64,000 nucleotides of DNA from a virus (Duplodnaviria; Heunggongvirae; Uroviricota; Caudoviricetes). The notes below the pieces were generated by a model that saw only the letters and a program-made list of their open reading frames with translations, was not told the origin of the DNA and did not search any database. Of the stretch, positions 3,001 through 64,000 are shown in pieces. The position numbers were made by a program, and so were the translations under genes. The stretch lies in IMG/VR virus record IMGVR_UViG_3300028030_000006, positions 29,611 to 93,610 of that record; one strand, written 5' to 3'. The number at the start of each line of letters is the position of its first letter. Positions within the stretch are counted from its first letter, which is position 1.

Positions 3001-5014
3001 TCACTTATACGGACAAGATTTTCATGGTGGTTTATTTTCAGGTACGTGTTTGAGTATTAATGGTGTTGCTTGTGTATATAATGACATACGTACTAGTAGT
3101 AAAGTATATGCTAATAGTGGTATTTGCGTATCTAGTGGTACTATTACTACTGCACCAGGTAAGAATAGTAGTTACGCCGGTGGCGGTGGAGCTCCTGCAA
3201 TTGCATTATGTAATAGTGAAATTAACGGAATTAACGCTTTAGTGTTTAATGATGTGTCTAACGGTCCTGGTGAGGGTATATTAGTACCTAAAACAGATAA
3301 CCCGTCAGGGTTAGCTAACTACACTAGTTTATATGCTAGATGTGACGGTCAGTGGCATATAGCACCTACTGCTTGTTCTACGTCTTATAAGATCTTTCAT
3401 CAAGGCAATATGGGACCTGGTAGTGGACTAGATGCAGATACTGTGGATGGAGTTGAAGCTAACTCATTAGCTAGGGCAGCTTTTAGGACTGACAATTCTG
3501 GTACAGACAGTACAACATGGTATAAAATTGCGAGAGTGACTCTATCAGGACGTTACCAAAATTATAACACGGAACTTCACTATATGAGTGAAGGTAGTAG
3601 TAATGTTATGCCGTATGTAGGTAAGCTTAATTTGCGTGTTAAGCAGCAAGCTGACTTTGGGAATGATCCTTATGTATCGGTATATGATTATTATGATGTA
3701 GCATCAGTTACAGATTTTAGTTACGTTATTGTTGATAATTCAGGACCATCTATTGTAGATATCTATGTAAAAAATAAATTAACTTATAACTATATTATAG
3801 GTACGCGTATTGAATCTTCTAGTGGTGCTGATAAAGTTGAATATTATGATTTAGCTACAAAACTTACTACGGAGCCTGCTGGGTTAGTACCTGCAGTTAA
3901 GCAGCATGTTGGACGTAGCTATGTGCAGACTTGTGGCGATACTATGACAGGCCAATTAAGTGTTTGTGGTAGTGGTACTATTGGTGGACCTAATGGTAGT
4001 GTTAATAATGGATATATTAGAGTTACGTGTGGTGGTGCTACGCTAGGTATAGATCCTAACGAAATTCAAACTACTGAGAGTGTATTGGGTTTATCTACTG
4101 CTGGTGGTACTGGGACATTAAAATTTAATGATCATACAGTTTGGCATGTAGGAAATATGGGAAGTGGGCATGGTTTAGATGCTGATAAGGTAGATGGATT
4201 ACACGCTAGTCAATTTGTTAGAAGTGATGCTGAAGACCATGCCACGGGTAAATTGTGGTTAGATGGCGGAGCTGTAATAAATAGTCACGTGTGTTGGACA
4301 AACACTAAGAATATTGTTCTTAACGCTAACGCAGATAACGCTGAATGGTCATTTGATTTACATAAATGCGGATATACTGGTGCTAAGTGGCATGTATGGG
4401 ATGAAGATAAAAGTTCATTGTTATCCGTACATCCTGATGATGGTACTGTTTGTACTCACTATAACTTAAGAGTCGGTAGTGCGCTGACTGTTGGCGGGTC
4501 AGCTGGACACTTTTTCAATGATGGTAATGGACGTACTGCGTATACTGGTGCGGACTTTTATATTCAGAGTGGTGCCCCTGTAACATACATTTATAGTCCT
4601 AATATCTACTTAGGAGATTCCGCAGGCTCTACTGTGTGGATGCGCGGCAATGCTTTAGTTGGTAATAATTGGGAGTTTAAAACTTCTGGTGAACTGTTAA
4701 TACATAGCTCTACACCGACGATAAGATTAAAAGATGTAGATAGTACTGGCTCCAATAATGCTATTAAATTCCAAACAGGTGCTAGTCAGGACTTGGCAAT
4801 TCGTCATGAGATCTCTGATAGTAATTTACCAACACCAGGGCAAGCAGTCGTAATACAGAATACATCTGATGCAGGTAATCATACGCAGTTAATAGTAGAT
4901 GAAGATGTATATGTACATGGTGGGAGTGGTACTGATGTATCAGGTGCTGTTAGGGTGCTACATTTAGGAGATTGTGATGATTTTGAAACGGCATATAACG
5001 CTGCCAAAGCGTAA
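2..5014 (+). CDS. Giant tail fibre protein, 5'-truncated by the window start. Internally repetitive, with a repeated ~33-aa Cys-containing motif (GYHSN/RFSNDDTTH...CVDSADDIC) and a repeated 'GNMGPGSGLDADKIDG' motif.
   Basis: The open frame runs from nt 2 with no upstream stop. Residues from nt 2 (SGNICRDAHSSGYFVGGYNNIGASNTKTNPIFTIGGHYLPGDNDLCNMYGIGYS) are near-identical to an internal segment of the next gene (nt 6020-6190). The 1656-aa ORF has low-complexity beta-rich G/S/T/N composition typical of fibres. A ~200-aa module is duplicated at nt 540-1130 and 2860-3470. Confidence 0.7.
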   Translation, partial: SGNICRDAHSSGYFVGGYNNIGASNTKTNPIFTIGGHYLPGDNDLCNMYGIGYSHCNANYDGISTVLHNGWGMYVAAAGCARIGLNATAGVGCAVGCWKAPTVCADLRLASVCGAIDNLCVNCACINYTTIDCASINHLTANTCVSGTITAEYVCATNTLCSSDMVVGDTFRANYAMTVGRFSNDDTTHSATITFKSTKCVDSADDICHAGTLTYDENGGFHLSSTLQSTTFIGDCLSISGTTCLYSDVSMNNNLCVASKVNIQDTLTTASSKVSSYAGGNGAPAIALCNSDINGINALVFNDPSNVTHEGILVPTKDSPTQLADYSNLTARTDGQWYVAPKANGTAYKVWTQGNMGPGSGLDADKIDGIDSSQLVYGDNSTGTRCNDNFDTITKSGFYNAQNATGSPYDTQWTWLVHHEHSNDNGYGFQMAVCNAATARLAIRTKMDGSVKPWREVAFLDSDISGDTTGNAATATKLATARTIGLSGDVSGSASFDGSSDVTIIATVANDSHTHDTRYYTKTCTDSKYGAKSGSLDQFADFADGDNHWHTAGRDLKVNNKRAMVGFSSTDGNKLVINYDDDFSNGTCICKKLNTGCVYAGLLQATSVCSTSTARVGYHSNNNSTHCGAVDFRSTLCVDGADDICKTARIHLQTDNTLCISNDTWAPKFTACDIVTTRYVCAPYVKGTTWVCSPTVCATSKVSTPTLSVGTVSEGFSVGSVTKTSDTTIRIKSDDGHQASLMVYGDIQGTGRVYVGQSPTYGGGIEYNGDNNPVTTGAGADYVTMFRRNSGTDYWTARNKYDGNDWEFRENAIARQCLVAGYHSNDNTSHAGSLVLRTTCCVADADDVCRTAKIQLWNNNCVYIDHGIVTGGSVKACGIICSCNADGNVCIGAQNTTWAHLMTDRPSFYTNKSLSVNGSICVHSGLACIGASGTILAKTCMITPMLCGWTGGVVGRFSNDNTTHAATLTFRSAKCVDSANDTCYSGYLNFTENGYFQLSDHLYGQDFHGGLFSGTCLSINGVACVYNDIRTSSKVYANSGICVSSGTITTAPGKNSSYAGGGGAPAIALCNSEINGINALVFNDVSNGPGEGILVPKTDNPSGLANYTSLYARCDGQWHIAPTACSTSYKIFHQGNMGPGSGLDADTVDGVEANSLARAAFRTDNSGTDSTTWYKIARVTLSGRYQNYNTELHYMSEGSSNVMPYVGKLNLRVKQQADFGNDPYVSVYDYYDVASVTDFSYVIVDNSGPSIVDIYVKNKLTYNYIIGTRIESSSGADKVEYYDLATKLTTEPAGLVPAVKQHVGRSYVQTCGDTMTGQLSVCGSGTIGGPNGSVNNGYIRVTCGGATLGIDPNEIQTTESVLGLSTAGGTGTLKFNDHTVWHVGNMGSGHGLDADKVDGLHASQFVRSDAEDHATGKLWLDGGAVINSHVCWTNTKNIVLNANADNAEWSFDLHKCGYTGAKWHVWDEDKSSLLSVHPDDGTVCTHYNLRVGSALTVGGSAGHFFNDGNGRTAYTGADFYIQSGAPVTYIYSPNIYLGDSAGSTVWMRGNALVGNNWEFKTSGELLIHSSTPTIRLKDVDSTGSNNAIKFQTGASQDLAIRHEISDSNLPTPGQAVVIQNTSDAGNHTQLIVDEDVYVHGGSGTDVSGAVRVLHLGDCDDFETAYNAAKA

Positions 5015-28995: not shown

Positions 28996-31252
28996 CTCCT
29001 AAACATGCTTGTTTTGGTTGCTCTTCTACAGATGCAACTCTAGTATTGGTATAGTATAATGTCTTCACTCCGTAATATTTAGCAAAATACATATCTTTTA
29101 GTAAGGTAGCCAATGGTATCTTCCCGCCCTTAAATAAGTCTGGATTATAAAAACGATTAGCACTAATAGACTTATCTATCCACTTCTGTGTTACTGCTAC
29201 ATGCATCAAATAACGTATAGTCATATCTTTAGACTCATAAGCTAACTCATACTGATGTGCTAACTTCCGAACTTGTGGAGCGAATTGCTTCATTGTAGAC
29301 GTCTTATTATTTTTATAGGTAATAAAGTCTTTGATAGGCTCCAACCCATTTGTCTGGCTAGAAGGTCCTGCGGATGACTCTGCTGGTGGCACCATAGAAA
29401 GTGCAACATTCGCCATACCTACCAACATTACACGTTCTCGTAACCAGTCCCAATCTTGAGTATATTCGCGTTGTACTAGCTCATCTACATGTTTGTTATA
29501 CCGGTCTATTGGCATAATGCCTTTAGCGTATGTTGAACGTTCCCAAAATACTGGCGCAGGAGAAGTCTCCTCAGCGATATCAGTTGATGACTTAATCAAA
29601 CTAAACTGAAATAACTCCATCCATTCATCGTGTTTCAGTAACGCCTCTTTACTACCATACTTTAAATTTTGTTTTGCTAGCCAGTATGCATGATTTGAGA
29701 AACCTAGACCTACACTACGATACTGCTCAACGTAAGCTTGGGCTTGTGTTGTTGGATGCTTCTGGCGTAGCATAATATGCGTCTGTGCTCTCAATAGAAT
29801 ATCCACAGTATCTGCGAGTTCATCCATAGGTATTACTCCCTGATTTACATTACCTAGGACACATATAGCAATTGCTGGATCGTCTGGTTTGGTACTCAAT
29901 ACTGGTTTAGTTGGAGATACCTCCTCTACACAGATGTTGGATTGATAAATAGTTTCAACATACGGAGAGTTGGTATTAATATCATCAATATTGATCACAT
30001 AATACGCACTATTTTCAAAAGCTTCCGTGTTTAACTGCTCTAACAGCAACCTAGCTGAGATACGATGGTTATCTGGAAATTCCTCCTCTAGCTGCTCATA
30101 TAATGCAACAAACTCATCCTTGTTCCCAGAATGACATACTTCATATAACTCTTTAGAATCTCTAGTTGAGAATAGCGTAATAACCTTACCAGCTTTAGCA
30201 CGTTCATACACCAAATCACGTAATTTTATGCCATAAGACAAGTCATTAATACGCTTCTCTATTGACGTTCTAGGTGACTTTAGGGCTAGTACTTCTAGTA
30301 TTTCAGGATCGAAGAAAAGTAAGAATGGAGTTGCTGAACCCCGTCTGCCATTCTGTACCGCTTTTTGTATATCAGCATCGATAGATTTTAGTACAGGGAT
30401 TTTCCCTCCGTGGTTTATTAAACCTCCTTTAACTTTGTCACCAATCGATGCAATCGAAGAGACATCGATACCTATCCCAGCAGATGCGGCTGTATGCAAC
30501 ACTAACGCTTTGGAAGCTTCCACCCAAGAATCTAATGAATCACCCATAGAAAGCAGTACACACGAGGCATAATCCGTACTCTCAGTACGTAATGCATCCA
30601 TTTCAGGCGATGGGAACGTAATGTAGAAATCTCGTAACTTCTTGTACAGTTTTTTAATATAGTACATACGATCTTTATGATAATCCCGAAATGTGTCCAT
30701 AGCTATTAACATAAACATATGTTGTGGAAGTTCTATTAAACGTCCGTTATGCTTTTTCATGTAGCGTAACTGCATAAATTCCAAACCTGCTGTAGAGAAG
30801 TTAAAATCGTGTGAGTAATCAATCGCAGACTCGAGGTCTTGAAATTCGTCAGCAGTAAATGAGTCCAATAACACTTGACTATACACCCCATAACTTACAC
30901 CACGCTGTAAAATGTCTATTAATGGTAGCGCATGTTTGGATCTCCCAACATCTTTATACATACGATGAACCATCAAATTTTTAGCTATAATATCATACCA
31001 TATATCTTTAACGGTAGCCATATCTTTCGCAGTTTTAATCAACACCTCATCGATATGTCTAGTAGGGATGCCATTATAGAAATGCAATTTAGCGGCCAAC
31101 TCAATATTACCAATTAAATGCTCGTATTTGCCTTCAGCAGCAGCTTCAAGATGTGAATGAATTTTCCCAACGTCCAAAGGCTCTGTACTGCCATCAGCTT
31201 TGGTAACATTAATTACATTACCTTGCTGTTGAGACATCATACCTCCTCCCAA
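28979..31252 (-). CDS. nrdA: Ribonucleotide reductase class I alpha subunit with ATP-cone
   Basis: N-terminal ATP-cone 'VINVTKADGSTEPLDVGKIHSHLEAAAEG' is present. The active-site region 'NICVEE' and a C-terminal 'CLGGGCEI' thiol pair are present. Length is 757 aa. Confidence 0.8.
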   Translation of the reverse strand: MGGGMMSQQQGNVINVTKADGSTEPLDVGKIHSHLEAAAEGKYEHLIGNIELAAKLHFYNGIPTRHIDEVLIKTAKDMATVKDIWYDIIAKNLMVHRMYKDVGRSKHALPLIDILQRGVSYGVYSQVLLDSFTADEFQDLESAIDYSHDFNFSTAGLEFMQLRYMKKHNGRLIELPQHMFMLIAMDTFRDYHKDRMYYIKKLYKKLRDFYITFPSPEMDALRTESTDYASCVLLSMGDSLDSWVEASKALVLHTAASAGIGIDVSSIASIGDKVKGGLINHGGKIPVLKSIDADIQKAVQNGRRGSATPFLLFFDPEILEVLALKSPRTSIEKRINDLSYGIKLRDLVYERAKAGKVITLFSTRDSKELYEVCHSGNKDEFVALYEQLEEEFPDNHRISARLLLEQLNTEAFENSAYYVINIDDINTNSPYVETIYQSNICVEEVSPTKPVLSTKPDDPAIAICVLGNVNQGVIPMDELADTVDILLRAQTHIMLRQKHPTTQAQAYVEQYRSVGLGFSNHAYWLAKQNLKYGSKEALLKHDEWMELFQFSLIKSSTDIAEETSPAPVFWERSTYAKGIMPIDRYNKHVDELVQREYTQDWDWLRERVMLVGMANVALSMVPPAESSAGPSSQTNGLEPIKDFITYKNNKTSTMKQFAPQVRKLAHQYELAYESKDMTIRYLMHVAVTQKWIDKSISANRFYNPDLFKGGKIPLATLLKDMYFAKYYGVKTLYYTNTRVASVEEQPKQACLGGGCEI

Positions 31253-34393: not shown

Positions 34394-35341
34394 TTAAGGT
34401 TCCTTTGTAATACTACCTAGGTATTTTGTGGTAATTTCGGTAATATCTTGGGTGTAAAGTTCAGTATTTCCTGACCTAATTACTTTTCGTCCGTAGTACT
34501 TGAATGGTTTTAATATTCCAGCTAGGTCAGCCTCTGCCTTATATGCTAATTCGCTAGAACCAAACGTATGCTGGTAGAGTACTATGTAAGGTTCAGGCTC
34601 TCCACTAAACCTATGTTTTACTGTATGTATAGTAACTCCAAGCTTCCATAAATTAAGTCGGGTAAAGTATATGACATACAAGAGTGTTTTAGTTTCTATG
34701 TCTTTATTTAAGTACCCTCGGTTACATAATGGACATCCTTTCCCTTTTCGATGGTTTTGATAGTCTTGTCTCACCTCGCCATGCACAGGACAGTCATAGA
34801 TAATCGTTGGATTTGCATCGACGCGTGCATAGATTAGGTCTTTATATGTATAAGTATGATTATGTGTTTGTATTAGTAGAGGTATTACCTGCTTTAACAT
34901 TACACGCTTCTGTTTGGCTGATGATAGAAAACCACAACACTTACAACCCTTACCTTGTAGATGATCATATTTTCTCTGTTTTCTAATACCATGCTCCATA
35001 CATATATAATAGACGTAATGTTTATCGATTTTTACATAACTATACTGATTATTATGAATTTTAGAGCAACGAATTTTAAAATCTTTAAATGATATCCTCC
35101 GATTAAGACCACGCTGCTTTCTAGCACAGATAGGACACCCATATTTAGTCTTGAGAATACCATCTGGCGTACTAGTAAAGTCTCCATGTAACTTACATGT
35201 AAATACTGATTTACATTTTGCACAAGAAAAGCTAAATTTATCTGTTAGAATCTTGCCATGGAATCTATTTTTGATTCGTTCTCTGTAAACCATAGAATAA
35301 TCTTTCACTTTACTTTCCTTCTGTTTTGTTGTTAATACCAC
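34394..35341 (-). CDS. Homing endonuclease-like protein: N-terminal Zn-ribbon repeats plus C-terminal T5orf172/GIY-YIG-superfamily domain
   Basis: Repeated CxxC pairs (CAKCKS, CPICARK, CKCCG, CPLCNRG) are present. The C-terminal 'LLYVIYFTRLNLWKLGVTIHTVKHRF...AEADLAGILKPF...GNTELYTQD' fits the T5orf172 pattern. The gene is located inside the polA interruption. Confidence 0.55.
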   Translation of the reverse strand: MVLTTKQKESKVKDYSMVYRERIKNRFHGKILTDKFSFSCAKCKSVFTCKLHGDFTSTPDGILKTKYGCPICARKQRGLNRRISFKDFKIRCSKIHNNQYSYVKIDKHYVYYICMEHGIRKQRKYDHLQGKGCKCCGFLSSAKQKRVMLKQVIPLLIQTHNHTYTYKDLIYARVDANPTIIYDCPVHGEVRQDYQNHRKGKGCPLCNRGYLNKDIETKTLLYVIYFTRLNLWKLGVTIHTVKHRFSGEPEPYIVLYQHTFGSSELAYKAEADLAGILKPFKYYGRKVIRSGNTELYTQDITEITTKYLGSITKEP

Positions 35342-35605
35342 ACTATGTCTCCATAGTGAATAGACTATATCACCACCCGTAGTGTAATCTACGGGGCTCC
35401 CCGTTTCGAGCTACCACTGCTCTACGTCTTACGACTAGTCGTTGAACCTTATCCATATCTAATAAAGACTTAGGATCTTGGCTGCTGATTGTCTCTATTA
35501 CTTAAATTTTCAGAGTTCGTTACATATTTCTATGTGATATTCTATTAAGTACCTTATAAGATATTCCAGCAATTAGAGGAGTTTTTCCAAATCTTATTAC
35601 TAAGA

Positions 35606-37393
35606 TTAGGCGCTCAAAGATTCAAGCGCCGCGTAGTCAGACGACCAAAATAAATAACCTTCTGGGGCGGGAAAGCAGGCTTTAATCAATTTTCCCATCG
35701 CCCCTTTTGAAGGGAGATTCGCGAAGTTTGGTGAGTTACTACTCAACCGACCTGTTACAGTTCCTCCAAGACGTTGATTGCCGTACAGACGTCCAATATC
35801 TCCTTGCCCTACATCTGTCCAAAGATCTTCAAACGCCTTCAAGAATGTTGATAGTACGATACTAGTCTCTGAGATAGTTATAAGATTTTCTAATGCCTCC
35901 TTAGCATCCGGATCTGTTACTTTATCTAAAAACTCTATAATACTGTCACGATTAGTTTTAGGTTGCTTTTTATCTGTAAAGTCAATAGGCTCAAACTCTA
36001 GAATATCAAAGAGTAATACACGTAGCTGAGCAGAACTATTAGGGTTAAATTTAAGATCCACAAAATCATCCGCAGTTTTCTTTTTAACTTTAGTCTTAGC
36101 ATTATACTTATCAGCAGCCTCTAGACGTAGTTGTGTTAGAGCCTGTTTGACGTAGAAATTATCTTGCAACGTATCCATAGCTGCATCATAGAGTTTCTTA
36201 ACGTGTATTTTTGCTTCTTTTGTCTTTGTTTTTGAGATAGGCAACCCGGCTACCATCATATTTACTAAGTACTTTAAAGAGGGTTGAATAATAATACGAT
36301 ATGTATCTTCTTGCTCTTCTTCTTGCATAAGCTTATAGTATTTATTATAGACCCAAAACGTGCCTACTACATCCATTGCATTGTACTTATAGAGAGTATC
36401 TTTAGGTAAAGCTAGTACGTCTTTAACGTCGACTGCATAATCACCCAAGTACTCATAAGCTAAGTCCTTCAAAGATAATGAGAATCTAGATGTACTATTC
36501 AAAGATAAAAATGCCATTAGCATCGTATCTTCCGAATCTAAATAATTAGCACCTAACGTACGCCCAATGTGATCTAAAGGGTCTGCCATAAACAGATGAC
36601 GCACTAAAAACTTAGCATCAAATAAATAGTTATGGAAAATCTTAACACCATTGTAAGCAATAAAAAACTCTTTAAGCCAACCTTTAACTTCTTCTGCTTT
36701 ATCTTTACGCTCTTGGTCAGTACCTTCCCACAACGATTCATGTATAGGTAAAGTAACCGCTTGAGTATCAGACCATGCAAATGCAATAGACACCAACTCA
36801 TCACGCTCAAAGCGTAAACCTGTAGCCTCAATATCAATAGCTAGTATATCTTTGGATAATAGATGCTGTAATTCCCTCTCAGTACGTATTACCTTATAAA
36901 AATCAAACTTGAATTTTTTATCTTCTATTTCCTCATGGTTCATCTCAGCGGCTATACGTTTTAATGCTAAGTCTTGAGTTTTCTGCCGATCAGGGTACAT
37001 TTGAAGTAACACATGACTAAGCATAGGAATTACTTTAATATGCTCATAGCCTGAAATAGCACATTGAAAGGCTTTACCAGCATTCTTTTCAATGCCTTTT
37101 GTACCAGCTAAGTAATAAAAATACTTTGAATCTGTAACAATGATACGTTCAATCCCAAGTGTATCACACTCGTCTAACACCTCACTAGCACTTTCCACTA
37201 AATCCTTCTTTTTCAGATTTCCTGTAGCTGGGTAGTATAAGCCAATAGCTCCTATGTCAGCACCTGCAGGCACCTCAGTAGAGTATTTACTTATTGGGTA
37301 GATATAATTTTTTAGTATGAGATCCTTTTTGAGATTCACTTGCTTAACTAGTAACGCCGTTGTTTGATTAGTATCTATACCAAATCTTAACAT
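35606..37393 (-). CDS. DNA polymerase A, N-terminal part (exon 1): 3'-5' exonuclease domain plus polymerase palm up to motif A
   Basis: Exo I 'LAIDIEATGL' is present. The polymerase region ends with motif A 'FWSSDYAALE' and then runs into an in-frame stop after 'SLSA'. Confidence 0.7.
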   Translation of the reverse strand: MLRFGIDTNQTTALLVKQVNLKKDLILKNYIYPISKYSTEVPAGADIGAIGLYYPATGNLKKKDLVESASEVLDECDTLGIERIIVTDSKYFYYLAGTKGIEKNAGKAFQCAISGYEHIKVIPMLSHVLLQMYPDRQKTQDLALKRIAAEMNHEEIEDKKFKFDFYKVIRTERELQHLLSKDILAIDIEATGLRFERDELVSIAFAWSDTQAVTLPIHESLWEGTDQERKDKAEEVKGWLKEFFIAYNGVKIFHNYLFDAKFLVRHLFMADPLDHIGRTLGANYLDSEDTMLMAFLSLNSTSRFSLSLKDLAYEYLGDYAVDVKDVLALPKDTLYKYNAMDVVGTFWVYNKYYKLMQEEEQEDTYRIIIQPSLKYLVNMMVAGLPISKTKTKEAKIHVKKLYDAAMDTLQDNFYVKQALTQLRLEAADKYNAKTKVKKKTADDFVDLKFNPNSSAQLRVLLFDILEFEPIDFTDKKQPKTNRDSIIEFLDKVTDPDAKEALENLITISETSIVLSTFLKAFEDLWTDVGQGDIGRLYGNQRLGGTVTGRLSSNSPNFANLPSKGAMGKLIKACFPAPEGYLFWSSDYAALESLSA

Positions 37394-37948: not shown

Positions 37949-39249
37949 TCTTCAATCCTCCCTATATGTTGAGATATGACCTTCTCTAAGGTATCAGCGT
38001 CATCCAGATCCACTCGCATTTGATCATACCTAGGTAAAAATAGACTATAAGTATCACTATCACGGCCTTTAATAAGTACATTAAACGTCACTTCGATAAT
38101 CTTACCTATTGGCGGCGTTTTAGTAAACATTTTAACATGCTCATCTGACAGTCCGCTACCGACGTTCACCTTGATCCGCCCATCAGCAGACTCACAAACT
38201 AGAGATCCTACCTGCCCAGCACGCTTACCTTTACCATTTACGACACCAACTACTCTCAATGAACATGAATTAACAGCTTTCATCTTAATCCAAGCTTTAG
38301 TACGTTTAAAGTTATATGGTGCATTTCTATCTTTAATAATTACACCCTCACCACCGGCATTTATAATCTCCTCATTAAACTGTTTAACTTGTCGCATTGA
38401 AGTCGCTAATCTAGACTCGGTAGTCTTTATATGTAGGGATTTAGTAAAAATTACACGTTTTTGTAATGAAAGTGTACGTTCATATTGAGGGTTAGACTTT
38501 CCTTGAGTTAAAAATACGTCTGTAGGAAGCTCATCAAAAGTGGAATACGTAATTATATCGTCGCTATTTGGCTGGTATCCGGACTTCAGGTTTTTATTAC
38601 AAATCCCTGATATAACAGTACGCTGTTCAGTGATTAATTCCCCATCAAACGTTAAGTCCTCACCATTAGCAACTTCTAAACATGCCTTCTCAATCTGAGG
38701 AAAGTGCAGTTCTCGGCCTTGTCGAGTAAATAGTGTACATTTATTATCTTTGATAACTGCTAAACATCTTACACCATCCTCTTTCTTTTCAACAATAGCA
38801 GGAAACTTGAACTTTACCTTCTCATCAAGCGGTGATGCTAAACCGCACTTGAATGTAGGGATAAAAGTATATCCAAAAGCTTTATTTACAGCTGTATCTA
38901 CACCTAACGCTAACTGTTTAGTGATAATACCTTCAACTACTTCTACAACGTCGGGATGTGTGTGTGACAACACGTTTAATGCCTTTTGTCGTAATTTATC
39001 ATTGATATTACTACTACGCAATATGTCTAGTAAAGATATAACATCATCAAACGTTGTAGTAGGCTCCAACATACGATACTCTTCAAATTTCTTAATCTTA
39101 TAAGAATACATAGGGTTTAACCTATATAAAAGTAAAGTCCGAAAATCTGCATCATCTTTGTACTTACGTAATACCTCAAGTTTATCATTTTTTCCGGTGG
39201 TACTTTTCAGTTCTTGTAATTTCTGTGTTGCTTGTTTTAATCGTTCCAT
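37945..39249 (-). CDS. ATP-dependent DNA/RNA ligase (nucleotidyltransferase with KxDG motif I)
   Basis: Motif I 'VEKKEDGVRCLAV' is present, along with downstream nucleotidyltransferase/OB-like regions. Length is 434 aa. Confidence 0.6.
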   Translation of the reverse strand: MERLKQATQKLQELKSTTGKNDKLEVLRKYKDDADFRTLLLYRLNPMYSYKIKKFEEYRMLEPTTTFDDVISLLDILRSSNINDKLRQKALNVLSHTHPDVVEVVEGIITKQLALGVDTAVNKAFGYTFIPTFKCGLASPLDEKVKFKFPAIVEKKEDGVRCLAVIKDNKCTLFTRQGRELHFPQIEKACLEVANGEDLTFDGELITEQRTVISGICNKNLKSGYQPNSDDIITYSTFDELPTDVFLTQGKSNPQYERTLSLQKRVIFTKSLHIKTTESRLATSMRQVKQFNEEIINAGGEGVIIKDRNAPYNFKRTKAWIKMKAVNSCSLRVVGVVNGKGKRAGQVGSLVCESADGRIKVNVGSGLSDEHVKMFTKTPPIGKIIEVTFNVLIKGRDSDTYSLFLPRYDQMRVDLDDADTLEKVISQHIGRIEE

Positions 39250-41468
39250 CTCTCTCCTTTAATTAGTTTAAAGTAATCATCCCGAAGCTTGACAGCATCA
39301 GTATACGGATATTTTGTAGCCAGTTCAATTACATGATACTCGATAGCTCTATACATATTTTCACGTATTTGTTGAAGTTTGCTTCTATCATCCTTAACTT
39401 TATATACTCTTGTTGCAACTGCTCGCATATGTTTCCAAAAACGATACCATCTAGTTTTATATTTAAATCGGTAGCCGTTAGCCCCTACATAAACATACCC
39501 TTCAACGAAGTTTTGACGATCTGCATTAGTATCTTGCTCCATCTCTTCGATATCTGCACGAAGTTCTTCTATAGTACTTATAACTTTTACTACAGATACT
39601 CGATGAACACCCTCGAACAGTACTTGTACATTAATCATTTCAACCTCACTTAAAACCTCAAACTTAATTTGATTCTTAATGGCATCGAGTAAAATTATTT
39701 CTGGTTTAGTATATTTAACTATATGTGGATCTTTTATTGGTTCGATTACTTCAAATGTGAGTGTAACATTATTATCCACTAGAAAATCTCGTAATTCATC
39801 TGTTAGATATGGTTTAAGCTGTTCACGAAACCATATACTATGGGATGATGTAATAGAGCTTTTTGATGCTATAAACCAAGCATCTTTGATAGTATCATAC
39901 GATAAAAGTCCTAAGTAACCATTAGGTTTTTCAACCTTCACGGTAGGGAATGTGATCTGGTTTGTGATTGCATCAAAATCTGTTTGAGGGTTCTCTTTAT
40001 AATTGAAAAACTTCTCGTAGCCTCTTGCAATAATGCTAGAGTCACTACGTATGAATAATCCTCGAGCTTTCGTAGATATGTCATCATACGTACCAGTTTT
40101 AAACGCTTTAGTAGTAAAGTTACAAGCAAACACATCATAGTCTAACTCTCTAACATTTACCATAGTATGTTCCTGCATTAGCTCAAATAAAGGTTTATCA
40201 TTCGCACATACACAAGTAGTTGAAGGCTCATATAATGAAGGATTAGTAGTAAAAGTATAGTCGGTATTTTTAACGGTATGTACTGTACAATCACCATCAA
40301 CAGGCACAATAACAGCTACTAACTCTCCACCATACTCAACGTTTCCTGTGATATTATACATACGATTTTTTACAACTTCTGGCTTCTGTTGTTTAATATT
40401 ACGATGTCCGTGTATTTGCAGCGCACGTGTTGGCATAGCATTAAGCCAATGTTCTTGTATCTTAGTAATATCAGAATAACTACCAACTCCTTTAATGAAT
40501 TCCTTAGTAGATGTTAGCAAACTAGGTATAGTGGGATATCCTGCATGATTAGCGAAAATAATACGATCACCAAACTTAGCATGAAACATTTGCCAATATC
40601 TAGTACGTAAACGTGTTACATCTTTTACTGTAATACCTGCCTGCATAAACTGATAAAAAGTTCGACGTGTTGCTGGGGATAGTTTAACTGTGCGTTTAAA
40701 TTCAGCATACTTATGATCTCCCGATGTACGTGCTGCTAACCACTCTTTGTAATGTATTAAGTGAGAATCATGATTACCTTCTAGTAGTACGTAATCAGGA
40801 CTGTCTTGGATAAGTTTAAATACTCCAGCCGCATCCTCTCCTCGATCAAACAAATCACCGATAAACACTGTCAACTGTTTATCCTGTTCTGTATCACTTA
40901 AGATTTGTTTAAGTTGTTTAAAGGAACTATGAACATCACCGATAAATCTAATACTATTATACTTATCCGTATAATCGAATAACGCTTCGTCTATTGTAAA
41001 CTCATCAGGTTTTACTACTTTAATCCAAGAAGGTATTATATTGTACTGAATACGCGCATACATGTTATCAATAACGTCTGCAGGAACTCTTTTAACGCCG
41101 CGTAAATCATTACGGCGGTGTAATTCTTCTAACGATACATCTCTAAAATCTACTGCAATAATTCGATATCTATACTGTTTGGCAAGTGTACGATACCTAT
41201 TAATCAGTTTAGAGCGCGTATGTGTTGCATCAATAATTGTAAAATCACCATTCTGCATTCGATGTTCTAGTAGTGTGAATAAGTGATCCCACACAGCTCC
41301 GTCATTCTTTTGTGATATGCCTTTGGATCCGTCTATCTGAGTTTCTGGTGCTTGGTACTGTAATCTAATAATGTCTGGAGACAATGTATAAGATTCTAAT
41401 CCTTGTGACGCAATCCACGTCGATTTTCCTGAAGCTGGCGTACCTACAGTAATAACTAATGTTCTCAT
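39237..41468 (-). CDS. Pnkp-like trifunctional end-healing/sealing enzyme: polynucleotide kinase, lambda-phosphatase-like phosphoesterase, and a C-terminal ligase-like domain
   Basis: The P-loop 'ITVGTPASGKSTW' is present. Phosphoesterase motifs 'GDVH', 'GDLFDRGED', 'LEGNHD' and 'HGHR' are present. The C-terminal 'VEKPNGYLGL' resembles ligase motif I (KxNG, as in Rnl2 KIHG). Confidence 0.55.
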   Translation of the reverse strand: MRTLVITVGTPASGKSTWIASQGLESYTLSPDIIRLQYQAPETQIDGSKGISQKNDGAVWDHLFTLLEHRMQNGDFTIIDATHTRSKLINRYRTLAKQYRYRIIAVDFRDVSLEELHRRNDLRGVKRVPADVIDNMYARIQYNIIPSWIKVVKPDEFTIDEALFDYTDKYNSIRFIGDVHSSFKQLKQILSDTEQDKQLTVFIGDLFDRGEDAAGVFKLIQDSPDYVLLEGNHDSHLIHYKEWLAARTSGDHKYAEFKRTVKLSPATRRTFYQFMQAGITVKDVTRLRTRYWQMFHAKFGDRIIFANHAGYPTIPSLLTSTKEFIKGVGSYSDITKIQEHWLNAMPTRALQIHGHRNIKQQKPEVVKNRMYNITGNVEYGGELVAVIVPVDGDCTVHTVKNTDYTFTTNPSLYEPSTTCVCANDKPLFELMQEHTMVNVRELDYDVFACNFTTKAFKTGTYDDISTKARGLFIRSDSSIIARGYEKFFNYKENPQTDFDAITNQITFPTVKVEKPNGYLGLLSYDTIKDAWFIASKSSITSSHSIWFREQLKPYLTDELRDFLVDNNVTLTFEVIEPIKDPHIVKYTKPEIILLDAIKNQIKFEVLSEVEMINVQVLFEGVHRVSVVKVISTIEELRADIEEMEQDTNADRQNFVEGYVYVGANGYRFKYKTRWYRFWKHMRAVATRVYKVKDDRSKLQQIRENMYRAIEYHVIELATKYPYTDAVKLRDDYFKLIKGERWND

Positions 41469-49650: not shown

Positions 49651-50233
49651 CGAATAACAGTTCAGCTATTTGTTTTATGTTTTTATAGTGCAAGTTATCC
49701 TCTTTTTCAGCTTTAGCTATTAACTCATCTAAAATCCCATAAAAACAACCTCTATTAACGTATATAGTATTGTTATACCTTACCAAAGTTAATACACCAT
49801 TCTCATAACCGATATGGGATATAACTTTTATATCCTTTTGTCTTTTTAACTCAATGTCATCAAATAAAGTACCATATAATTTTGTATATAGCTTTGCATT
49901 ATTAAACATTATTGCATTATTAAACATTGCTGCATTATTAAACATTGCTGCATTATCATATAGCTTTGTATTATTGAACATTTCTGCATTATCATATAGC
50001 TTTGTATTATTAAACATTGCTGCATTATCATATAGCTTTGTATTATTAAACATTGCTGCATTATCATATAACCAACAAGTACCTTCTTGACTTAAGTTAT
50101 GTTCGTTGTTTACATAACCCCCTAAATCACCTTTTTTAACATTACCAAAGTCTTTTAATGCTTTAATTTGATAATTAACACCAGCACCATAAAATTTATG
50201 GTTTGGTTGTAATTTTATTAATTCATATTTCAT
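49637..50233 (-). CDS. Hypothetical protein containing an in-frame tandem 12-aa repeat (KLYDNAAMFNNT)
   Basis: The 36-bp DNA unit 'attatcatatagctttgtattattaaacattgctgc' is repeated about 3 times, plus 18-bp sub-repeats, at roughly 49890-50075. Confidence 0.45.
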   Translation of the reverse strand: MKYELIKLQPNHKFYGAGVNYQIKALKDFGNVKKGDLGGYVNNEHNLSQEGTCWLYDNAAMFNNTKLYDNAAMFNNTKLYDNAEMFNNTKLYDNAAMFNNAAMFNNAIMFNNAKLYTKLYGTLFDDIELKRQKDIKVISHIGYENGVLTLVRYNNTIYVNRGCFYGILDELIAKAEKEDNLHYKNIKQIAELLFDEGK

Positions 50234-59790: not shown

Positions 59791-60033
59791 CTACCTCCTT
59801 GGACGTAATGGGAATACTTTCCCTGAAAATACCATATATAGCTTCCAGAAAAATCCTTTGTTTGTGTCTATGCGCCACGTTGGGTGGTCGAGTGAGTATT
59901 CCCATTTACGTCTTTTGTTTGTGGAGTAGGACGTCCCGAACAGTCTAAATGTTCGAATTTTGTGGTGAGTTTCTATGAGTACAACACCTCGTTTAAAGGC
60001 GTCTCGCATTTCTTGTTGGTGTTTGGTATTCAT
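59791..60033 (-). CDS. Small basic protein (80 aa) overlapping the inverted-repeat element upstream of the RT. Coding status uncertain.
   Basis: RBS AAGGAGAAGTG precedes the ATG at 60033, and the TGATG overlaps the upstream gene's stop. The ORF spans the 59801-59912 dyad element. Confidence 0.35.
   Translation of the reverse strand: MNTKHQQEMRDAFKRGVVLIETHHKIRTFRLFGTSYSTNKRRKWEYSLDHPTWRIDTNKGFFWKLYMVFSGKVFPLRPRR
59801..59912 (-). ncRNA. Candidate retron-like msr/msd ncRNA. An 18-bp inverted-repeat pair (a1/a2-like) flanks 76 nt and ends 1 nt before the RT RBS.
   Basis: 59801-59818 'ggacgtaatgggaatact' is the reverse complement (one indel) of 59895-59912 'agtattcccatttacgtc'. The internal hairpin 'ccaccc aacgtgg' and its position directly 5' of the RT match retron geometry. 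The region is short and overlaps an ORF. Confidence 0.25.
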
Positions 60034-60512
60034 CACTTCTCCTTATTTATTATGTTCTGTATTGTGGTATTTATAGCATCCCAAAATAAGAATCCTTCAG
60101 GCGTATCTTTCCAAACGAACGCCTGTTTTAAGGTAAGGTTCTCCATATTTGACATTTCCGCATACTTAATATGTGACTTTACAAGTCGCCAAACGCCTAG
60201 GCGTTTCAGTATACGTTTTTGCTCTTTGTTGAACGGGGTATAAGGTTTAAGTACTAAATCGTTTGGTAAACATATAGCTATCTTAGGACTAAACTCGCTA
60301 GGTTTTATCACTGAGTACTCAGCATATAACTCAATCAGTTCCGGGCTACTTGCAGCAGTAGCTAAATCACTGTACTTAGTACCATATTCTAACGTATCCC
60401 GCAAATCTACTACCCTTACGAGCAACTTAGTACTATCTAGTGTACATTTAAAGAAATGGCCAACGAATTTCGTCCAGTTTTTATCCATATATTGAGTTGT
60501 GTATTTATGCAT
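60033..60512 (-). CDS. Hypothetical protein, paralogue of the upstream gene
   Basis: The 159-aa product shares 'NWTKFVG..FK', 'WKDTPEG..FW..IN' with the 166-aa neighbour. Confidence 0.45.
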   Translation of the reverse strand: MHKYTTQYMDKNWTKFVGHFFKCTLDSTKLLVRVVDLRDTLEYGTKYSDLATAASSPELIELYAEYSVIKPSEFSPKIAICLPNDLVLKPYTPFNKEQKRILKRLGVWRLVKSHIKYAEMSNMENLTLKQAFVWKDTPEGFLFWDAINTTIQNIINKEK

Positions 60513-61005
60513 TTTCGTTCTCCTTAATATGTTTATTTATGTTAGCCCAGAAATTATACCCTTCCGGTGTGTCTTTCCAACAAAAAGCGCTTTGAAGTGT
60601 TATAGTGCTACTAATACTTCGGTAATCGTTAGTACGTTTTATATATTGATATATACGCTTTTTTGTGCGTTTCCATAATTTAAGACGTTTTAGGTTATGT
60701 TTTTCAGCCTTATCAAACTGAATTACCAACTCTAAACATATAATATCTGACAGACAGACAGACTTCTTGAGGTCTGTAACCCCTTCAGGTAAATATTCAG
60801 CATACGTAGGTTCGCCTGGCTCATTCTGATTCCTGTCCGTATATTCACGAATCGTACTAGTGGAATGTATTTCGTCGACGTCTACTAGTTTTAACACTTG
60901 TCCAAATTTTCTCGAGTCGGTAGGACTAACCACTTTAAAACGGCACCCTACAAATTTGGTCCAGTTGGCATCAAGTTGTGGAGCTGTCAATATTAACTTT
61001 TTCAT
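60505..61005 (-). CDS. Hypothetical protein, paralogue of the downstream gene (tandem duplication)
   Basis: 166 aa with RBS AAAAGGATAATACAATG. It is the first gene after promoter P2. Confidence 0.45.
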   Translation of the reverse strand: MKKLILTAPQLDANWTKFVGCRFKVVSPTDSRKFGQVLKLVDVDEIHSTSTIREYTDRNQNEPGEPTYAEYLPEGVTDLKKSVCLSDIICLELVIQFDKAEKHNLKRLKLWKRTKKRIYQYIKRTNDYRSISSTITLQSAFCWKDTPEGYNFWANINKHIKENENA

Positions 61006-61067
61006 TGTATTATCCTTTTATGTTTTTGTTTGATATTAGGTATGTGTATTATTAGGTAGGGTATTGA

Positions 61068-61150
61068 GTTACCTATTGGGTTACTTATTGGGTTACTTAT
61101 TGGGTTACTTATTACGCTACCTATTGGGTTACTTATTACGCTACCGTTTA
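61068..61150. repeat. Short tandem repeats (GGGTTACTTATT / ACGCTACCTATTGGGTTACTTATT) in the transcribed leader downstream of promoter P2
   Basis: Directly visible. The track ORF 61002..61193 merely translates these repeats (SNPI/SNPIG). Confidence 0.8.
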
Positions 61151-61202
61151 GCGTATCTCTATAGGTGTAAGTACCTATTACCTCTGCCGGCAATAGGTTT
61201 TT

Positions 61203-61231
61203 ATTATATCCAGATTTGAGCTTTTTGTCAA
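61203..61231 (-). promoter_or_regulatory. Consensus sigma-70 promoter P2 (TTGACA-17-TATAAT) directed into the - strand operon
   Basis: The reverse complement of 61203-61231 reads TTGACAaaaagctcaaatctggaTATAAT. It sits inside a ~140-bp element duplicated at 62456-62585. Confidence 0.7.
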
Positions 61232-61277
61232 GCGATTTCGCTTAAAACCATCTTAAATTTACAAATTTCAGGTAGAT

Positions 61278-61493
61278 TTAAGCCTTGACCATCGCTTTCG
61301 CTTTTGGTGTGAGGTAGTAGTCCAGACCTAACACCGTCTCCCGCAGCTCCAATAGTCCTGCTTGTATAGCTTTAGCCGGGCTTTTAACAAGCTTATTGTA
61401 AAGCTTGAATTGGCCTTTTAAGCTTGTACAACTTTCGCTATTTTCATGATGGTAGGTTTGAGACCCGCCTCCGACAAACTCTCCGGCTATCAT
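61278..61493 (-). CDS. Hypothetical protein (G+C-richer island gene)
   Basis: 71 aa. Codon composition is shifted relative to the rest of the window. Confidence 0.35.
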   Translation of the reverse strand: MIAGEFVGGGSQTYHHENSESCTSLKGQFKLYNKLVKSPAKAIQAGLLELRETVLGLDYYLTPKAKAMVKA

Positions 61494-61741
61494 TTCAAAC
61501 CTCCACAGTGTTTAGGGAAGCCATTACTATCGAGACGTGGTGTCATACCCGCCCCGTAACGAGATTCGAGAATTAAATATTCCCTATAACTTTGTGGGTC
61601 ACAATAAACTGTGACGTTATTGGGTCTATTGTACTGTTGAGGTGTTGTATATGATTCAGTATGTAGACCGCCCGCACTCTGACACGCTGAGAATGTCATA
61701 ATTATTGCGACGATGCCTAAGGCGTATTGATGTAGTTTCAT
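61490..61741 (-). CDS. Small lipoprotein (signal peptide plus lipobox FSAC)
   Basis: 'MKLHQYALGIVAIIMTFSACQSAGG' is a lipoprotein signal with the Cys at +1. The mature part is about 63 aa. Confidence 0.5.
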   Translation of the reverse strand: MKLHQYALGIVAIIMTFSACQSAGGLHTESYTTPQQYNRPNNVTVYCDPQSYREYLILESRYGAGMTPRLDSNGFPKHCGGLK

Positions 61742-61751
61742 GATATATCCT

Positions 61752-61979
61752 TTACTTGATTTCTTTTAATAGTTTGGTACAACGCTCCGCTTCTAGGCGG
61801 AATATCTCCCTATCGAGTTGAAGCGTTGTTTGTTCGGAGCGCCTATTTAGCAATTTTATGTGTACTCTCTCACAGACGTTCAGAGCTTCGCCAATAGTTG
61901 GTATATGCTTTACCCTTCGCAGAGCGATAAACTCCGCCTCAGGGAAGCATATACCACATTTAGACATACCTAATCCCAT
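61752..61979 (-). CDS. Small Cys-containing protein (possible TraR/DksA-like zinc finger; tentative)
   Basis: 'MSKCGICFPEAEFIALRRV...C' has a CxxC near the N-terminus. Length is 75 aa. Confidence 0.3.
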   Translation of the reverse strand: MGLGMSKCGICFPEAEFIALRRVKHIPTIGEALNVCERVHIKLLNRRSEQTTLQLDREIFRLEAERCTKLLKEIK

Positions 61980-62167
61980 AGTTCATCGAGCCGTGAGACA
62001 GGTTTCTTCGTAGTCGCCAAATCTTGACGCTTCTTAATAGTTAGGCGTCCTAGTTTTGCCGCCCTAGTTAGCGGCATTTTATTTTGAGGAGGTTTCGTGG
62101 TGTTTCGCTGCGCAGAGCGTTGGGTATATGGCTCCGCCCCTCTTATGTGGGTTCTACAGTTTATCAT
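61970..62167 (-). CDS. Hypothetical basic protein
   Basis: 65-aa ORF. It is the first ORF downstream of promoter P1, after a ~340-nt leader. Confidence 0.3.
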   Translation of the reverse strand: MINCRTHIRGAEPYTQRSAQRNTTKPPQNKMPLTRAAKLGRLTIKKRQDLATTKKPVSRLDELWD

Positions 62168-62384
62168 AATGATTCCTTTGTATAGTAAGAGCGATACGCT
62201 CTAAGTGACGAATAAGGTTCGTTTGGAGGCGTTAGTATCTAACGCGGACTAAAGGTGTTAAGAGATTTAATAATCCCTCCAGAGATACATATTTAGTAAC
62301 TTAATATGCTCGATAAGAATTGGAGACGGTTTATATAGGTTAGTAGGATATGTATCTATGTAAGGATTGTGAGGTACTGTGTAT

Positions 62385-62435
62385 ATTGAGCTACCTATTG
62401 GGTTCGTTATTGAGCTACCTATTGGGTTCGCTAAA
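62385..62435. repeat. Tandem repeat (GAGCTACCTATTGGGTTCG(T/C)TA..) in the P1 leader. Related to the P2 leader repeats.
   Basis: Two direct copies are present. They share the 'CCTATTGGGTT' core with 61068-61150. Confidence 0.75.
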
Positions 62436-62512
62436 CGGTATCATAATAAGTTAGCGTTTAGCGTATCTCTATAGGTGTAAGTACCTATTACCTCTGCCGG
62501 CAATAGGTTTTT

Positions 62513-62541
62513 ATTTTACCCAAATTTTCCGTTTTTGTCAA
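62513..62541 (-). promoter_or_regulatory. Near-consensus sigma-70 promoter P1 (TTGACA-17-TAAAAT) directed into the G+C-richer small-gene island
   Basis: The reverse complement of 62513-62541 reads TTGACAaaaacggaaaatttgggTAAAAT. It is in the same register as P2 within the duplicated element. A 57-bp stretch immediately downstream (62456-62512) is identical to 61146-61202. Confidence 0.65.
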
Positions 62542-62678
62542 GTGAAATCACTTAAATCTACCTGAAATTTGTAAATTTAAGCGTCCTCTAAGCTTATAGG
62601 ACGATTTCCGCCCACTTAGCCAACTTTGTTTCGAGCTTATCAAGCCAATCGTTTAAGGTTTTCATAAGGTTTCTCCTT

Positions 62679-62735
62679 CCCAGTTTTGGGGACGCCAAAC
62701 GCCCCAGTTTTGGGGACGCCAAACGCCCCAGTTTT
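62679..62735. repeat. 2.4 copies of a 24-bp direct repeat (CCCCAGTTTTGGGGACGCCAAACG), each forming a GGGG...CCCC hairpin
   Basis: Directly visible. Upstream of P1, in a non-coding region. Confidence 0.8.
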
Positions 62736-63252
62736 CATCCCATATTAAACCTTAAATTTAGCTTAAAAAGTTCGTGTAGGGTCGAAAAAATTCGAATGTT
62801 TTTCAAATTCCTTAAGCTACGATTAAGTTTATACTATAAGGAATTTTCGAGGTGGTTAAAAATTAAGCAGTCCGTGAATAGAAACTGCCTAAATTTTAAT
62901 CAGTTGGTTCGTTTCTTCTTTCGGCGATGAGGTTTCGCCTTTTTGCACCGAGGTGCTTTGATAATACCCCGAAACCTCGGTTTCGGGTTCAGCACTTCCT
63001 CGTGTTGATGCTGGTATCGCTGCAATGGTGAGCGGCAAGCCTCTCGGAACTCTGGGTCGTCCAGAAAGCGGTCGCCCAACTCCGAGAACGCTATCGTCCC
63101 GCGGTTGATATGGTATGACATAGGTGTACTCCTATATTGGTATATGTTCGATAAACGCCCCAATCTAGGGCGCTTGGTAGAAAATATGAAGATAACAGAC
63201 GGACGCGAAACGATACCATTTAACGATACCGAAACATCCGCCGAGCGGTAAT

Positions 63253-63310
63253 TGAAGCCCGCCCAAAGACGGGCGAATACTTGAAGCCCGCCCAAAGACG
63301 GGCGAATACT
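63253..63310. repeat. Two copies of a 29-bp direct repeat (TGAAGCCCGCCCAAAGACGGGCGAATACT), each containing a CGCCC/GGGCG hairpin
   Basis: Directly visible. Confidence 0.8.
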
Positions 63311-63876
63311 TGTACTAGAGCCCTCCGCTATGGGGCTGTTGGCAATTACATAATTCATCTCCAGAAAATTTCAAAACGCTTGCCGCTCCTCCCGCTAGGG
63401 GCGACCCAATAAAGGACGCGAAACGGTATGATATGAAATTTGTAGAGACCACCCCTTGCCGTTTTGGGGTGATAGAGATACGCTCTCTATGGGCGTTTGA
63501 CGCCATCGGCACTACTGCTCTAGGTGACGCCACGGGATTTATACCCACCCGCTAAGGGCACTGCCGCCAATCTATCTTAGTACCCGATACGATAACCAAC
63601 ATTTCATAGAAAACCGCTATTTGCCTTTTACCCCGTGTCGCTTCACGGGAAGATTATAGGCGGTTTGACTAAAACCACTAAGGTCAGTTGGCTATATTCT
63701 ATGCGTACATAATACGCCCCTAAAGCGGGGATATAGCCCTTCGTGGGCGGTTTTGACGGGTTGCCATAATCTTGGAAAATTCGGGGGTTGTCGTTAATCT
63801 TGGATAAATTTTTGACAGAAGTCGCCCTATCCTACTAAATAGGGCTTTGAATTTTTAAGTTAGATACAATTTATAA

Positions 63877-64000
63877 GCCATACGCTAAGCCATACGCTAA
63901 GCCATACGCTAAGCCATACGCTAAGCCATACGCTAAGCCATACGCTAAGCCATACGCTAAGCCATACGCTAAGCCATACGCTAAGCCATACGCTAAGCCA
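63877..64000. repeat. 12-bp tandem repeat (GCCATACGCTAA) with at least 10 copies, truncated by the window end
   Basis: Perfect copies run from 63877 to the last base of the window. Confidence 0.9.

Follow-up and report, generated by a model that had tools for sequence, protein, structure and literature searches.

A composite tract with a 12-bp tandem array, a candidate structured RNA and a small basic-protein gene at the contig end of a ~94-kb phage genome

The window analysed here comprises 64,000 nucleotides (nt) of the IMG/VR virus record IMGVR_UViG_3300028030_000006 (Caudoviricetes; positions 29,611 to 93,610 of that record), and its last 1.4 kb (62590-64000) form a tract dense in repeats and hairpins that closes with a perfect 12-bp tandem array. 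With a probability of roughly 50%, this tract is a composite with which the early, minus-strand gene region of a ~93.6-kb genome opens, the assembly having broken at its outer edge. The reading is carried by a conserved gene for a basic protein of 73 amino acids (aa), by a covarying RNA motif upstream of this gene, and by the array, whose position is conserved among relatives, whose turnover is rapid and which coincides with contig ends. A first-pass annotation, made from the letters alone, had described the tract as 1.4 kb of non-coding DNA; the repeats and hairpins are real, but the tract holds the 73-aa gene, with homologues, a ribosome-binding site (RBS) and a terminator.

The phage is novel and not T7-like, with a genome of about 94 kb and without a close deposited relative. 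Searches with 62000-64000 in near and distant modes gave no DNA match to deposited phages, the polymerase and RNA ligase share only 33-35% identity with known phages (polymerase ~33%), and the best tblastn matches are N4-like phages. The window has a G+C content of ~37%. Its genes up to ~9 kb lie on the plus strand (tail-fibre), and nearly all genes between 9.8 and 62.2 kb lie on the minus strand, including those for an exonuclease, DnaB-like and other helicases, ribonucleotide reductase, ligases and a DNA polymerase whose gene carries a group I intron. Since the tract is upstream of this whole block, it is to be read on the minus strand. The G+C content of 63001-64000 is 48.5% versus ~37% in the rest of the window (42-60% in sub-parts of 62900-64000, 38% in 62590-62899), and the folding z-score of the 761-nt core against shuffled sequences is -3.9 on the minus and -2.6 on the plus strand. 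The tract contains no tRNA or tmRNA. The features are summarized in Table 1.

The 73-aa frame is a real coding gene. An exhaustive HMMER search of 1.8e9 proteins returned two full-length homologues, P0079 with 66 aa and 53% identity (E = 5e-6) and P0080 with 70 aa and 47% identity (E = 2e-5), and a profile search added a third, P0082. These homologues of 66-70 aa occur in three other phage lineages, and the family shares 19 invariant columns, including a C-terminal GI.KAP.C.K motif. The protein matches no Pfam or PHROG family; with its homologues it forms a candidate small-protein family of four lineages. The G+C content of the gene is 54%. An AlphaFold2 model of the protein is weak (mean per-residue confidence, pLDDT, 67; two short helices), too weak to search for similar folds. 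The first-pass annotation had seen no credible open reading frame (ORF) in the tract. As they stand, its two listed ORFs, of 152 aa and 77 aa, are no genes, with negative codon log-odds and no family match, and the codon usage of the large genes of the phage is seen in no ORF of the tract; the last 73 codons of the 152-aa ORF, however, are the real gene, as indicated by the AGGAG, the terminator and the homologues.

The best-conserved part of the tract is non-coding. L013, the contig of P0079, is collinear with the minus strand in three blocks, the best of which (63560->63497) has 89% identity over 64 nt versus ~62% for the adjacent gene at the DNA level. The same RNA element precedes the small gene in the P0080 and P0082 lineages. 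It opens with the single-stranded UGCCCUUAG; the P1 hairpin has the invariant 11-nt loop UGGGUAUAAAU, and the P2 helix encloses the junction CCUAGA, the P3 hairpin and the junction CGA. Five sequences were aligned by hand, with gaps coded as N, and fitted to this model: all 15 pairs form in all five sequences and 10 of the 15 are changed on both sides, compared with 32-41% paired and 0-2 both-side changes in controls with the partners slid by 1-3 columns. Depending on the lineage, P2 reads GGCGUCA/UGGCGUC, GUGAUAUU/AAUAU..CAC or GGAUACA/UGUA.UCC, and its G-U pairs exist on the sense strand only, which argues for an RNA rather than a DNA cruciform. A covariance model matches 63489-63569 and three relatives (E 1e-20 to 1e-25), with one copy per lineage and no other in the 0.4 Mb of loci searched. 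Scanning loosely for the RNA loop with 15 bases delivered chance matches only, to which the covariance model added no copies. Rfam gave no relevant match with E <= 5 in 60900-64000 and none with E <= 1 in the contigs L013, L015 and L017. A long-range helix suggested by RNAalifold (CCCUUAG/CUAGAGG) is broken in L017 and L170 and was given up for the P1-P3 model. Conservation and covariation of the motif are observed directly, and it is regarded as a candidate new structured RNA family of four lineages. Three of them (L013, L015/L017, L170) have a -10 box whose end lies 15-22 nt upstream of the P1 loop, which places the motif at the start of their transcript. The distance from the motif to the ATG is 440 nt in this phage versus 188-196 nt in the relatives.

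The array consists of the unit GCCATACGCTAA on the plus strand (TGGCTTAGCGTA in early-gene sense; also given as GCTTAGCGTATG when set beside the modules of relatives). At least 10 perfect copies had been reported for it; Tandem Repeats Finder (TRF) gives 10.6 copies of 12 bp with 100% matches, and GCCATACGCTAA occurs exactly 10 times in the window, always in the array, a number of matches reached in 0 of 100 shuffles. This copy number is a lower bound. The array had also been said to run off the window; it does reach the last base, and this edge is the end of the source contig in two assemblies. The reverse transcriptase (RT) protein of this phage sits on two contigs, of 93,610 nt and 93,531 nt, and the MEGAHIT contig k141_416043 from ENA begins at window position 63999, within the array. 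Over 15 kb the two assemblies show no mismatch, their sole difference being one 36-nt indel near 50.0 kb, and they end at most 1 nt apart, after 126-127 nt of array. Both thus halt inside the array, and the minimum of 10 copies reflects where assembly stopped. Exact scans of IMG/VR, JGI metagenome contigs and GTDB genomes for the array gave no match, a peptide search with its four open translations found only unrelated low-complexity proteins, and no relatives were found in IMG/VR with the 589-aa protein and the DUF7192 protein, used alone or as an alignment. A 28-nt AT-rich stretch (63846-63873) adjoins the array on the inner side, next to a terminator-like hairpin that would keep outward (antisense) transcription from reaching the array. 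In the relatives an A-run/hairpin/T-run, read by eye, lies 20-30 nt past the array.

The small gene is found in this phage and in the lineages of P0079 (L013), P0080 and P0082 (scaffolds L170/L171). In the latter three lineages all seven short contigs with the gene end 510-675 nt upstream of it. The ends of four of the seven were read, and all four lie in a tandem array, three with (TTTAGCTTGTCTAGCAACTG)n and one with (GCTTAGGACT)n. The arrays of the relatives occupy the equivalent position and have 10- and 20-bp units. From the end of the array to the RNA motif there are 313 nt in this phage and 284-298 nt in L015, L017 and L170, which covers four lineages and all those with an array; the spacers share only ~45% identity across lineages and are otherwise unalignable, their length being conserved. 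L015 and L017 have spacers that are 95% identical and array units that differ. The units resemble shuffled 10-bp modules (CTTAGGACTG, CATAGCAACT, TTTAGCTTGT), have the core YWTAGS in common and show periods of 10, 12 or 2x10 bp.

In the P0082 phage the array is internal: it stands between packaging module and early genes and varies in copy number. The TGCATAGCAACTCTTAGGAC array is crossed, at 3.5 copies, by a 26-kb scaffold and is interrupted by a gap of 100 N in a 97.8-kb scaffold, and the copy number in the L170/L171 arrays differs between two samples of one phage. The gene for the terminase large subunit (phrog_2, E = 7.7e-23) lies ~3.2 kb upstream of the array on the same strand in L170, in a cluster from which the portal gene is divergent, and a gene for a NikA-like ribbon-helix-helix protein lies 2 kb upstream of the array. 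Because scaffolds read or bridge this array, the contig ends are explainable by assembly failure at a variable repeat; the P0082 array may still lie inside or beside a terminal repeat. The cassette offers a worked example of tandem arrays at which the metagenomic phage contigs of several lineages break off at an equivalent point, and such contig ends should not be taken as genome termini without reads.

Table 1. Features of the tract and of the adjoining early promoter module (window coordinates; an arrow marks the reading direction of a gene)
Feature	Coordinates	Strand	Evidence
Perfect 12-bp tandem array, 10.6 copies seen	63874..64000	.	TRF and exact-copy count
G+C hairpin GCCCTATCCTACTAAATAGGGC, T-run after, A-run before	63824..63845	+	terminator scan
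Spacer between array and RNA motif	63561..63823	-	lineage-specific hairpins; short direct repeat
Structured RNA motif, ~60 nt, candidate family	63499..63560	-	conservation, covariance model, paired columns
Leader segment, ~245 nt phage-specific	63122..63498	-	distance comparison, folding
Gene for 73-aa basic protein, MSYHINRGTIAFSELGDRF...GIIKAPRCKKAKPHRRKKKRTN	63121->62900	-	AGGAG 7 nt upstream of ATG
Intrinsic terminator, 11-bp stem and TTTTT	62863..62892	-	terminator scan; starts 8 nt past the 73-aa stop
Conserved non-coding block with GACCCTACAC	62750..62810	-	74% identity to L013 1082-1141, collinear
24-bp x2.4 repeat, 100% match	62679..62735	-	TRF
Candidate 24-codon micro-ORF MKTLNDWLDKLETKLAKWAEIVL (tentative)	62668->62594	-	GGAG 7 nt upstream
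Early promoter module B	62384..62581	-	AT-rich palindrome, TTGACA-17-TAAAAT (62541->62513), leader hairpin, 12-nt periodic repeats

Read 5' to 3' on the minus strand, the tract starts with a helically phased 12-bp array, hypervariable between strains and truncated by assembly, followed by the terminator-like hairpin and a spacer of ~300 nt, the ~60-nt structured RNA, which would begin the mRNA as in the relatives, a long leader dense in hairpins, the basic-protein gene with its own terminator, a second short leader composed of a hairpin repeat and a micro-ORF, and finally two consensus host-type early promoters. The RNA may act in cis as a leader, controlling the mRNA of the small protein or making it more stable, in the simplest case by binding a protein, possibly its own product; the invariant loops and junctions of the motif suggest protein recognition. 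Structured 5' leaders are known to autoregulate small basic nucleic-acid-binding proteins, as in ribosomal-protein leaders and the T4 gene 32 operator. The likeness consists of a covarying structure at the mRNA 5' end and a small basic protein; differences are the lack of any sequence or Rfam relation, the 440 nt between motif and start codon in this phage, and the putative nature of the binding.

The array, in turn, may be a row of sites for a DNA-binding protein, all on the same face of the helix with the core YWTAGS once per helical turn. It would lie at the junction of packaging module and early genes and act in genome-end formation or the start of packaging, in the manner of T7, with replication slippage altering its units and copy number. 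A terminus or packaging role of this kind is putative but plausible. The first-pass annotation had named a terminus or pac region among its alternatives, and this more general idea receives indirect support from the cassette contigs of three further lineages, which end just upstream of the region, from the two sigma-70 promoters downstream, and from the L170 array between terminase module and early genes.

The closest architectural match is provided by the short-repeat arrays of T7, for which a role in packaging has been proposed. In the T7 record NC_001604 short repeats and then the right terminal repeat come after genes 19 (terminase) and 19.5, and the left end shows, behind its 160-bp repeat, ~12 CCTAAAG units (13-bp period, nt 175-341), the promoters A1-A3 and gene 0.3. 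Both systems have at least 10 direct repeats of about one helical turn with a core (12 bp x10.6 here versus the 13-bp period of T7), and the order may be alike, with early promoters downstream in this phage and, in the relative L170, a gene for the terminase large subunit upstream. The T7 units, however, are imperfect, have variable spacers and adjoin a mapped 160-bp terminal repeat, whereas the units here are perfect and strain-variable and are separated from the promoters by ~1.3 kb with a gene and an RNA motif. Tandem repeats of 10-12 bp which would put bound proteins on one helix face are also a feature of iterons and of type II/III partition centromeres, such as R1 parC (11 bp x10) and pBtoxis tubC (12 bp x7). 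The array differs from these in that its units are not conserved between close strains, and no ParR/TubR adaptor or ParM/TubZ NTPase genes occur in the 5 kb next to the array on the side that is seen.

In its most far-reaching form the proposal would join array, RNA and basic protein into one conserved module at the packaging/early junction, common to distant phages, in which the array is a strain-specific, rapidly rewritten packaging or end-formation site that limits cross-packaging of co-infecting relatives, and the RNA represents a new class of protein-binding leader for the first gene after DNA entry. Taken as a whole this is unlikely. If the array were such a strain-specific signal, its fast change would be explained and the T7-style junction layout would extend to unrelated phages of ~90-100 kb. 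The RNA and small-protein families, standing at the very start of the early region, are both directly testable.

Several observations speak against parts of this picture. The L170/L171 array is crossed by scaffolds, hence there is no unique physical end there, and the far flank of the array of the present phage was found neither by the exact scans nor by the peptide search. L013 and L014, which carry the cassette, have no perfect array at the contig end; they come from different projects and begin at the same nucleotide. Codon usage in the 73-aa gene is atypical, the covariation derives from four lineages only and from a hand-made alignment, and this phage has no clear promoter directly before the motif, the nearest TATAAT being located 104 nt upstream. 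The function of the array and its binding protein are putative, and the complete difference of array units between close strains also fits a neutral, slippage-prone repeat.

The last point leads to the best-surviving alternative, according to which the array has no function: a neutral minisatellite in a spacer that only breaks short-read assemblies, next to an ordinary early leader and small gene. Perfectly identical units suggest recent expansion, the units are wholly different between strains with 95% identical flanks, the copy number varies between two samples of one phage, L013 and L014 lack a perfect array, and other copy-variable repeats exist (the 36-nt indel near 50.0 kb and a 12-bp repeat in the contig L007). 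On the other hand, the array is kept at 284-313 nt from the RNA motif although the spacers are unalignable, the periods are all 10, 12 or 2x10 bp with the shared core YWTAGS, and this core reappears as TTAGCG or TAGCGG, on one strand only, within the RNA motif and the neighbouring 300 nt. This alternative is accordingly doubtful, while deserving serious consideration.

Another possibility is that the array represents the iterons of a replication origin, where an initiator binds the repeats and melts adjacent AT-rich DNA. The direct repeats do stand beside the 28-nt AT-rich stretch, at an intergenic place at the start of the early region, and the cumulative GC skew has its minimum near 61-64 kb; the skew, however, tracks gene orientation. 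No initiator gene is adjacent, the neighbouring ORFs being small and without family match, and the helicase, primase and polymerase genes are 10-50 kb away. A search of both strands of 62001-64000 for the DnaA box TTATCCACA with at most one mismatch gave no hit. Origin iterons are usually ~17-22 bp long, imperfect and spaced apart, whereas the units here are perfect, contiguous and 12 bp long, and close strains do not conserve them. An origin is therefore considered improbable.

The first-pass annotation had preferred a comparison with T5-like phages, in which such a tract would be the injection-stop signal at the inner edge of a long terminal repeat. There is a likeness, as the tract exceeds 1 kb, is dense in direct repeats and palindromes and stands near strong host-type early promoters at a contig end. 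The T5 injection-stop region is a 1662-bp untranslated region with many repeats and with long inverted repeats inside the terminal repeat, and T5-like phages have eight DnaA or DnaA-like boxes in pairs (Davison, preprint 10.1101/866236). The comparison fails on these testable features: besides the missing DnaA boxes, no ~131-bp inverted-repeat pair of the IRC-spacer-IRD type was found, the longest one touching the tract having at most 25 nt with 72-80% complementarity, and a single 31-nt inverted pair belonging to the duplicated promoter modules. In addition, a conserved gene lies in the tract, and beyond the tract the contig ends after just 127 nt of array, which leaves no room for pre-early genes such as dmp-A1-A2, located in the T5 type between the untranslated region and the genome end within a terminal repeat of roughly 10 kb; neither DNA matches to deposited phages nor the polymerase (~33% identity) point to a relationship with T5. 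This explanation is very improbable.

Equally far-fetched is an origin of the repeats from the retron-type RT of the phage (58881-59789, minus strand), which would have copied them, in a telomere-like or DRT2-like manner, from a short RNA template. In its favour, the RT gene lies at a distance of 4.1 kb and is transcribed in the same direction, AUACGCUAA, with 9 of the unit's 12 nt, is present in both early-promoter leader RNAs, and the array stands at a contig end. Against it, no RNA holds a full unit plus overlap, the RT-sharing relatives L005 and L007 have neither array nor RNA motif, a cassette-sharing relative has no RT in the 20 kb seen and an internal array, and seven genes and two promoters separate RT and tract (2.8-4.2 kb).

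The spacer between array and RNA motif contains two copies of the direct repeat TAATCTTGGA(A/T)AA at 63767-63807. Within 300 nt on one strand are found four of the nine minus-strand occurrences of TAGCGG in the window, one inside the RNA motif and the others at 63325, 63392 and 63614. The extra ~245 nt of the leader hold the 29-bp repeat and the G+C hairpins noticed in the first annotation, and a terminator-like hairpin lies ~40 nt before the RBS of the 73-aa gene. Both direct repeats reported there were recovered by TRF with 100% matches, as 24 bp x2.4 and 29 bp x2.1 (63252-63312). Of the two hairpins quoted with them, caccccttgccgttttggggtg is exact at 63450-63471, and the other was off by one base; it reads CCGAAACCTCGGTTTCGG (62969-62986) and falls within the real coding sequence.

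Downstream of the 73-aa gene, the conserved block at 62750..62810 may belong to the small transcription unit that comes next, as its leader or as a promoter-proximal element. The sequence ACCCTACAC also occurs 50 nt before the first early gene of L005. A phage promoter family based on GACCCTACAC was rejected, as the 10-mer occurs once in the window. Each 24-bp unit of the following repeat is a hairpin (GGGGCG..CGTCCCC or CCCCA..TGGGG) directly upstream of an RBS, and L005 has the single-copy counterpart ACTGGGCGTTACCCCAAAAGG before its first early gene. The 24-codon micro-ORF is a tentative further gene candidate; micro-ORFs at the equivalent place in L013 (39 aa, ...NDWLTKKGWL) and L015 (22 aa) show weak similarity.

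Module B is a 79% copy of module A (61074-61271), each 198 nt long with a 56-nt stretch of 100% identity, and together they hold the only two consensus sigma-70 promoters of the window (62.5 and 61.2 kb, minus strand). The 12-nt periodic leader repeats GTAACCCAATAG and GTAGCGTAATAA have TACGCTA in common with the terminal 12-mer. An equivalent promoter with CCTATATATAAC repeats is present in L005. The early region of this contig also has two repeat-dense non-coding tracts (679-1878 and 3002-4446, the latter at a position equivalent to the present tract), in which occur three copies of CAGCGCGAAGCC, repeats of CGTTGAGCGTA, two perfect copies of a 46-bp repeat and an island of 50.7% G+C.

The 12-bp repeat of L007 (1267-1295), AGCTAAGCCAAT, encodes the (AKPI)n linker of a protein that is anchored in the membrane and was judged lysozyme-like by its sequence, and three independent contigs (L008, L010, L012) end at this repeat. 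It was considered as kin of the array owing to 9 nt shared with the unit; the repeat is coding and the match was taken as coincidence. The 36-nt tandem repeat at ~49970-50060 lies within a gene and differs by one copy between the two assemblies.

The RT has 302 aa and occurs in a lytic-looking phage (Pfam RVT_1, E = 1.3e-23; PADLOC retron RT_III-A, E = 1.6e-33) and does not reach the NCBIfam cut-offs for retrons. After it come a variable protein, with 589, 502 or 323 aa depending on the relative, and then a conserved set (a 128-aa, an AAA_5 and a DUF7192 protein), and synteny downstream of the RT is kept in the RT-sharing relatives. On the minus strand at 59800-59930 a 17-bp inverted repeat, GACGUAAAUGGGAAUACU...AGUAUUCCCAUUACGUC, ends at the RBS of the RT gene (z = -3.7) and may serve to control translation of the RT or represent a retron-like RNA. 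It is located within an uncalled 81-codon ORF (59791-60036) with the motif W.DT..GF.FW of its upstream paralogues; the three tandem paralogues (60505-61005, 60033-60512 and 59791-60036, minus strand) share a C-terminal W(K/R)DT..G..FW motif and match the PHROGs phrog_16354 and phrog_10949 of unknown function.

A group I intron (35341-35634, minus strand; Rfam RF00028, 92 bits) is located at the 3' end of the polymerase ORF (35606-37393) and is taken to split the polymerase gene. A fused polynucleotide kinase/phosphatase and RNA ligase of 743 aa is encoded at 39237-41468 on the minus strand (phrog_8238, E = 8e-182) and shares ~35% identity with Staphylococcus phage proteins.

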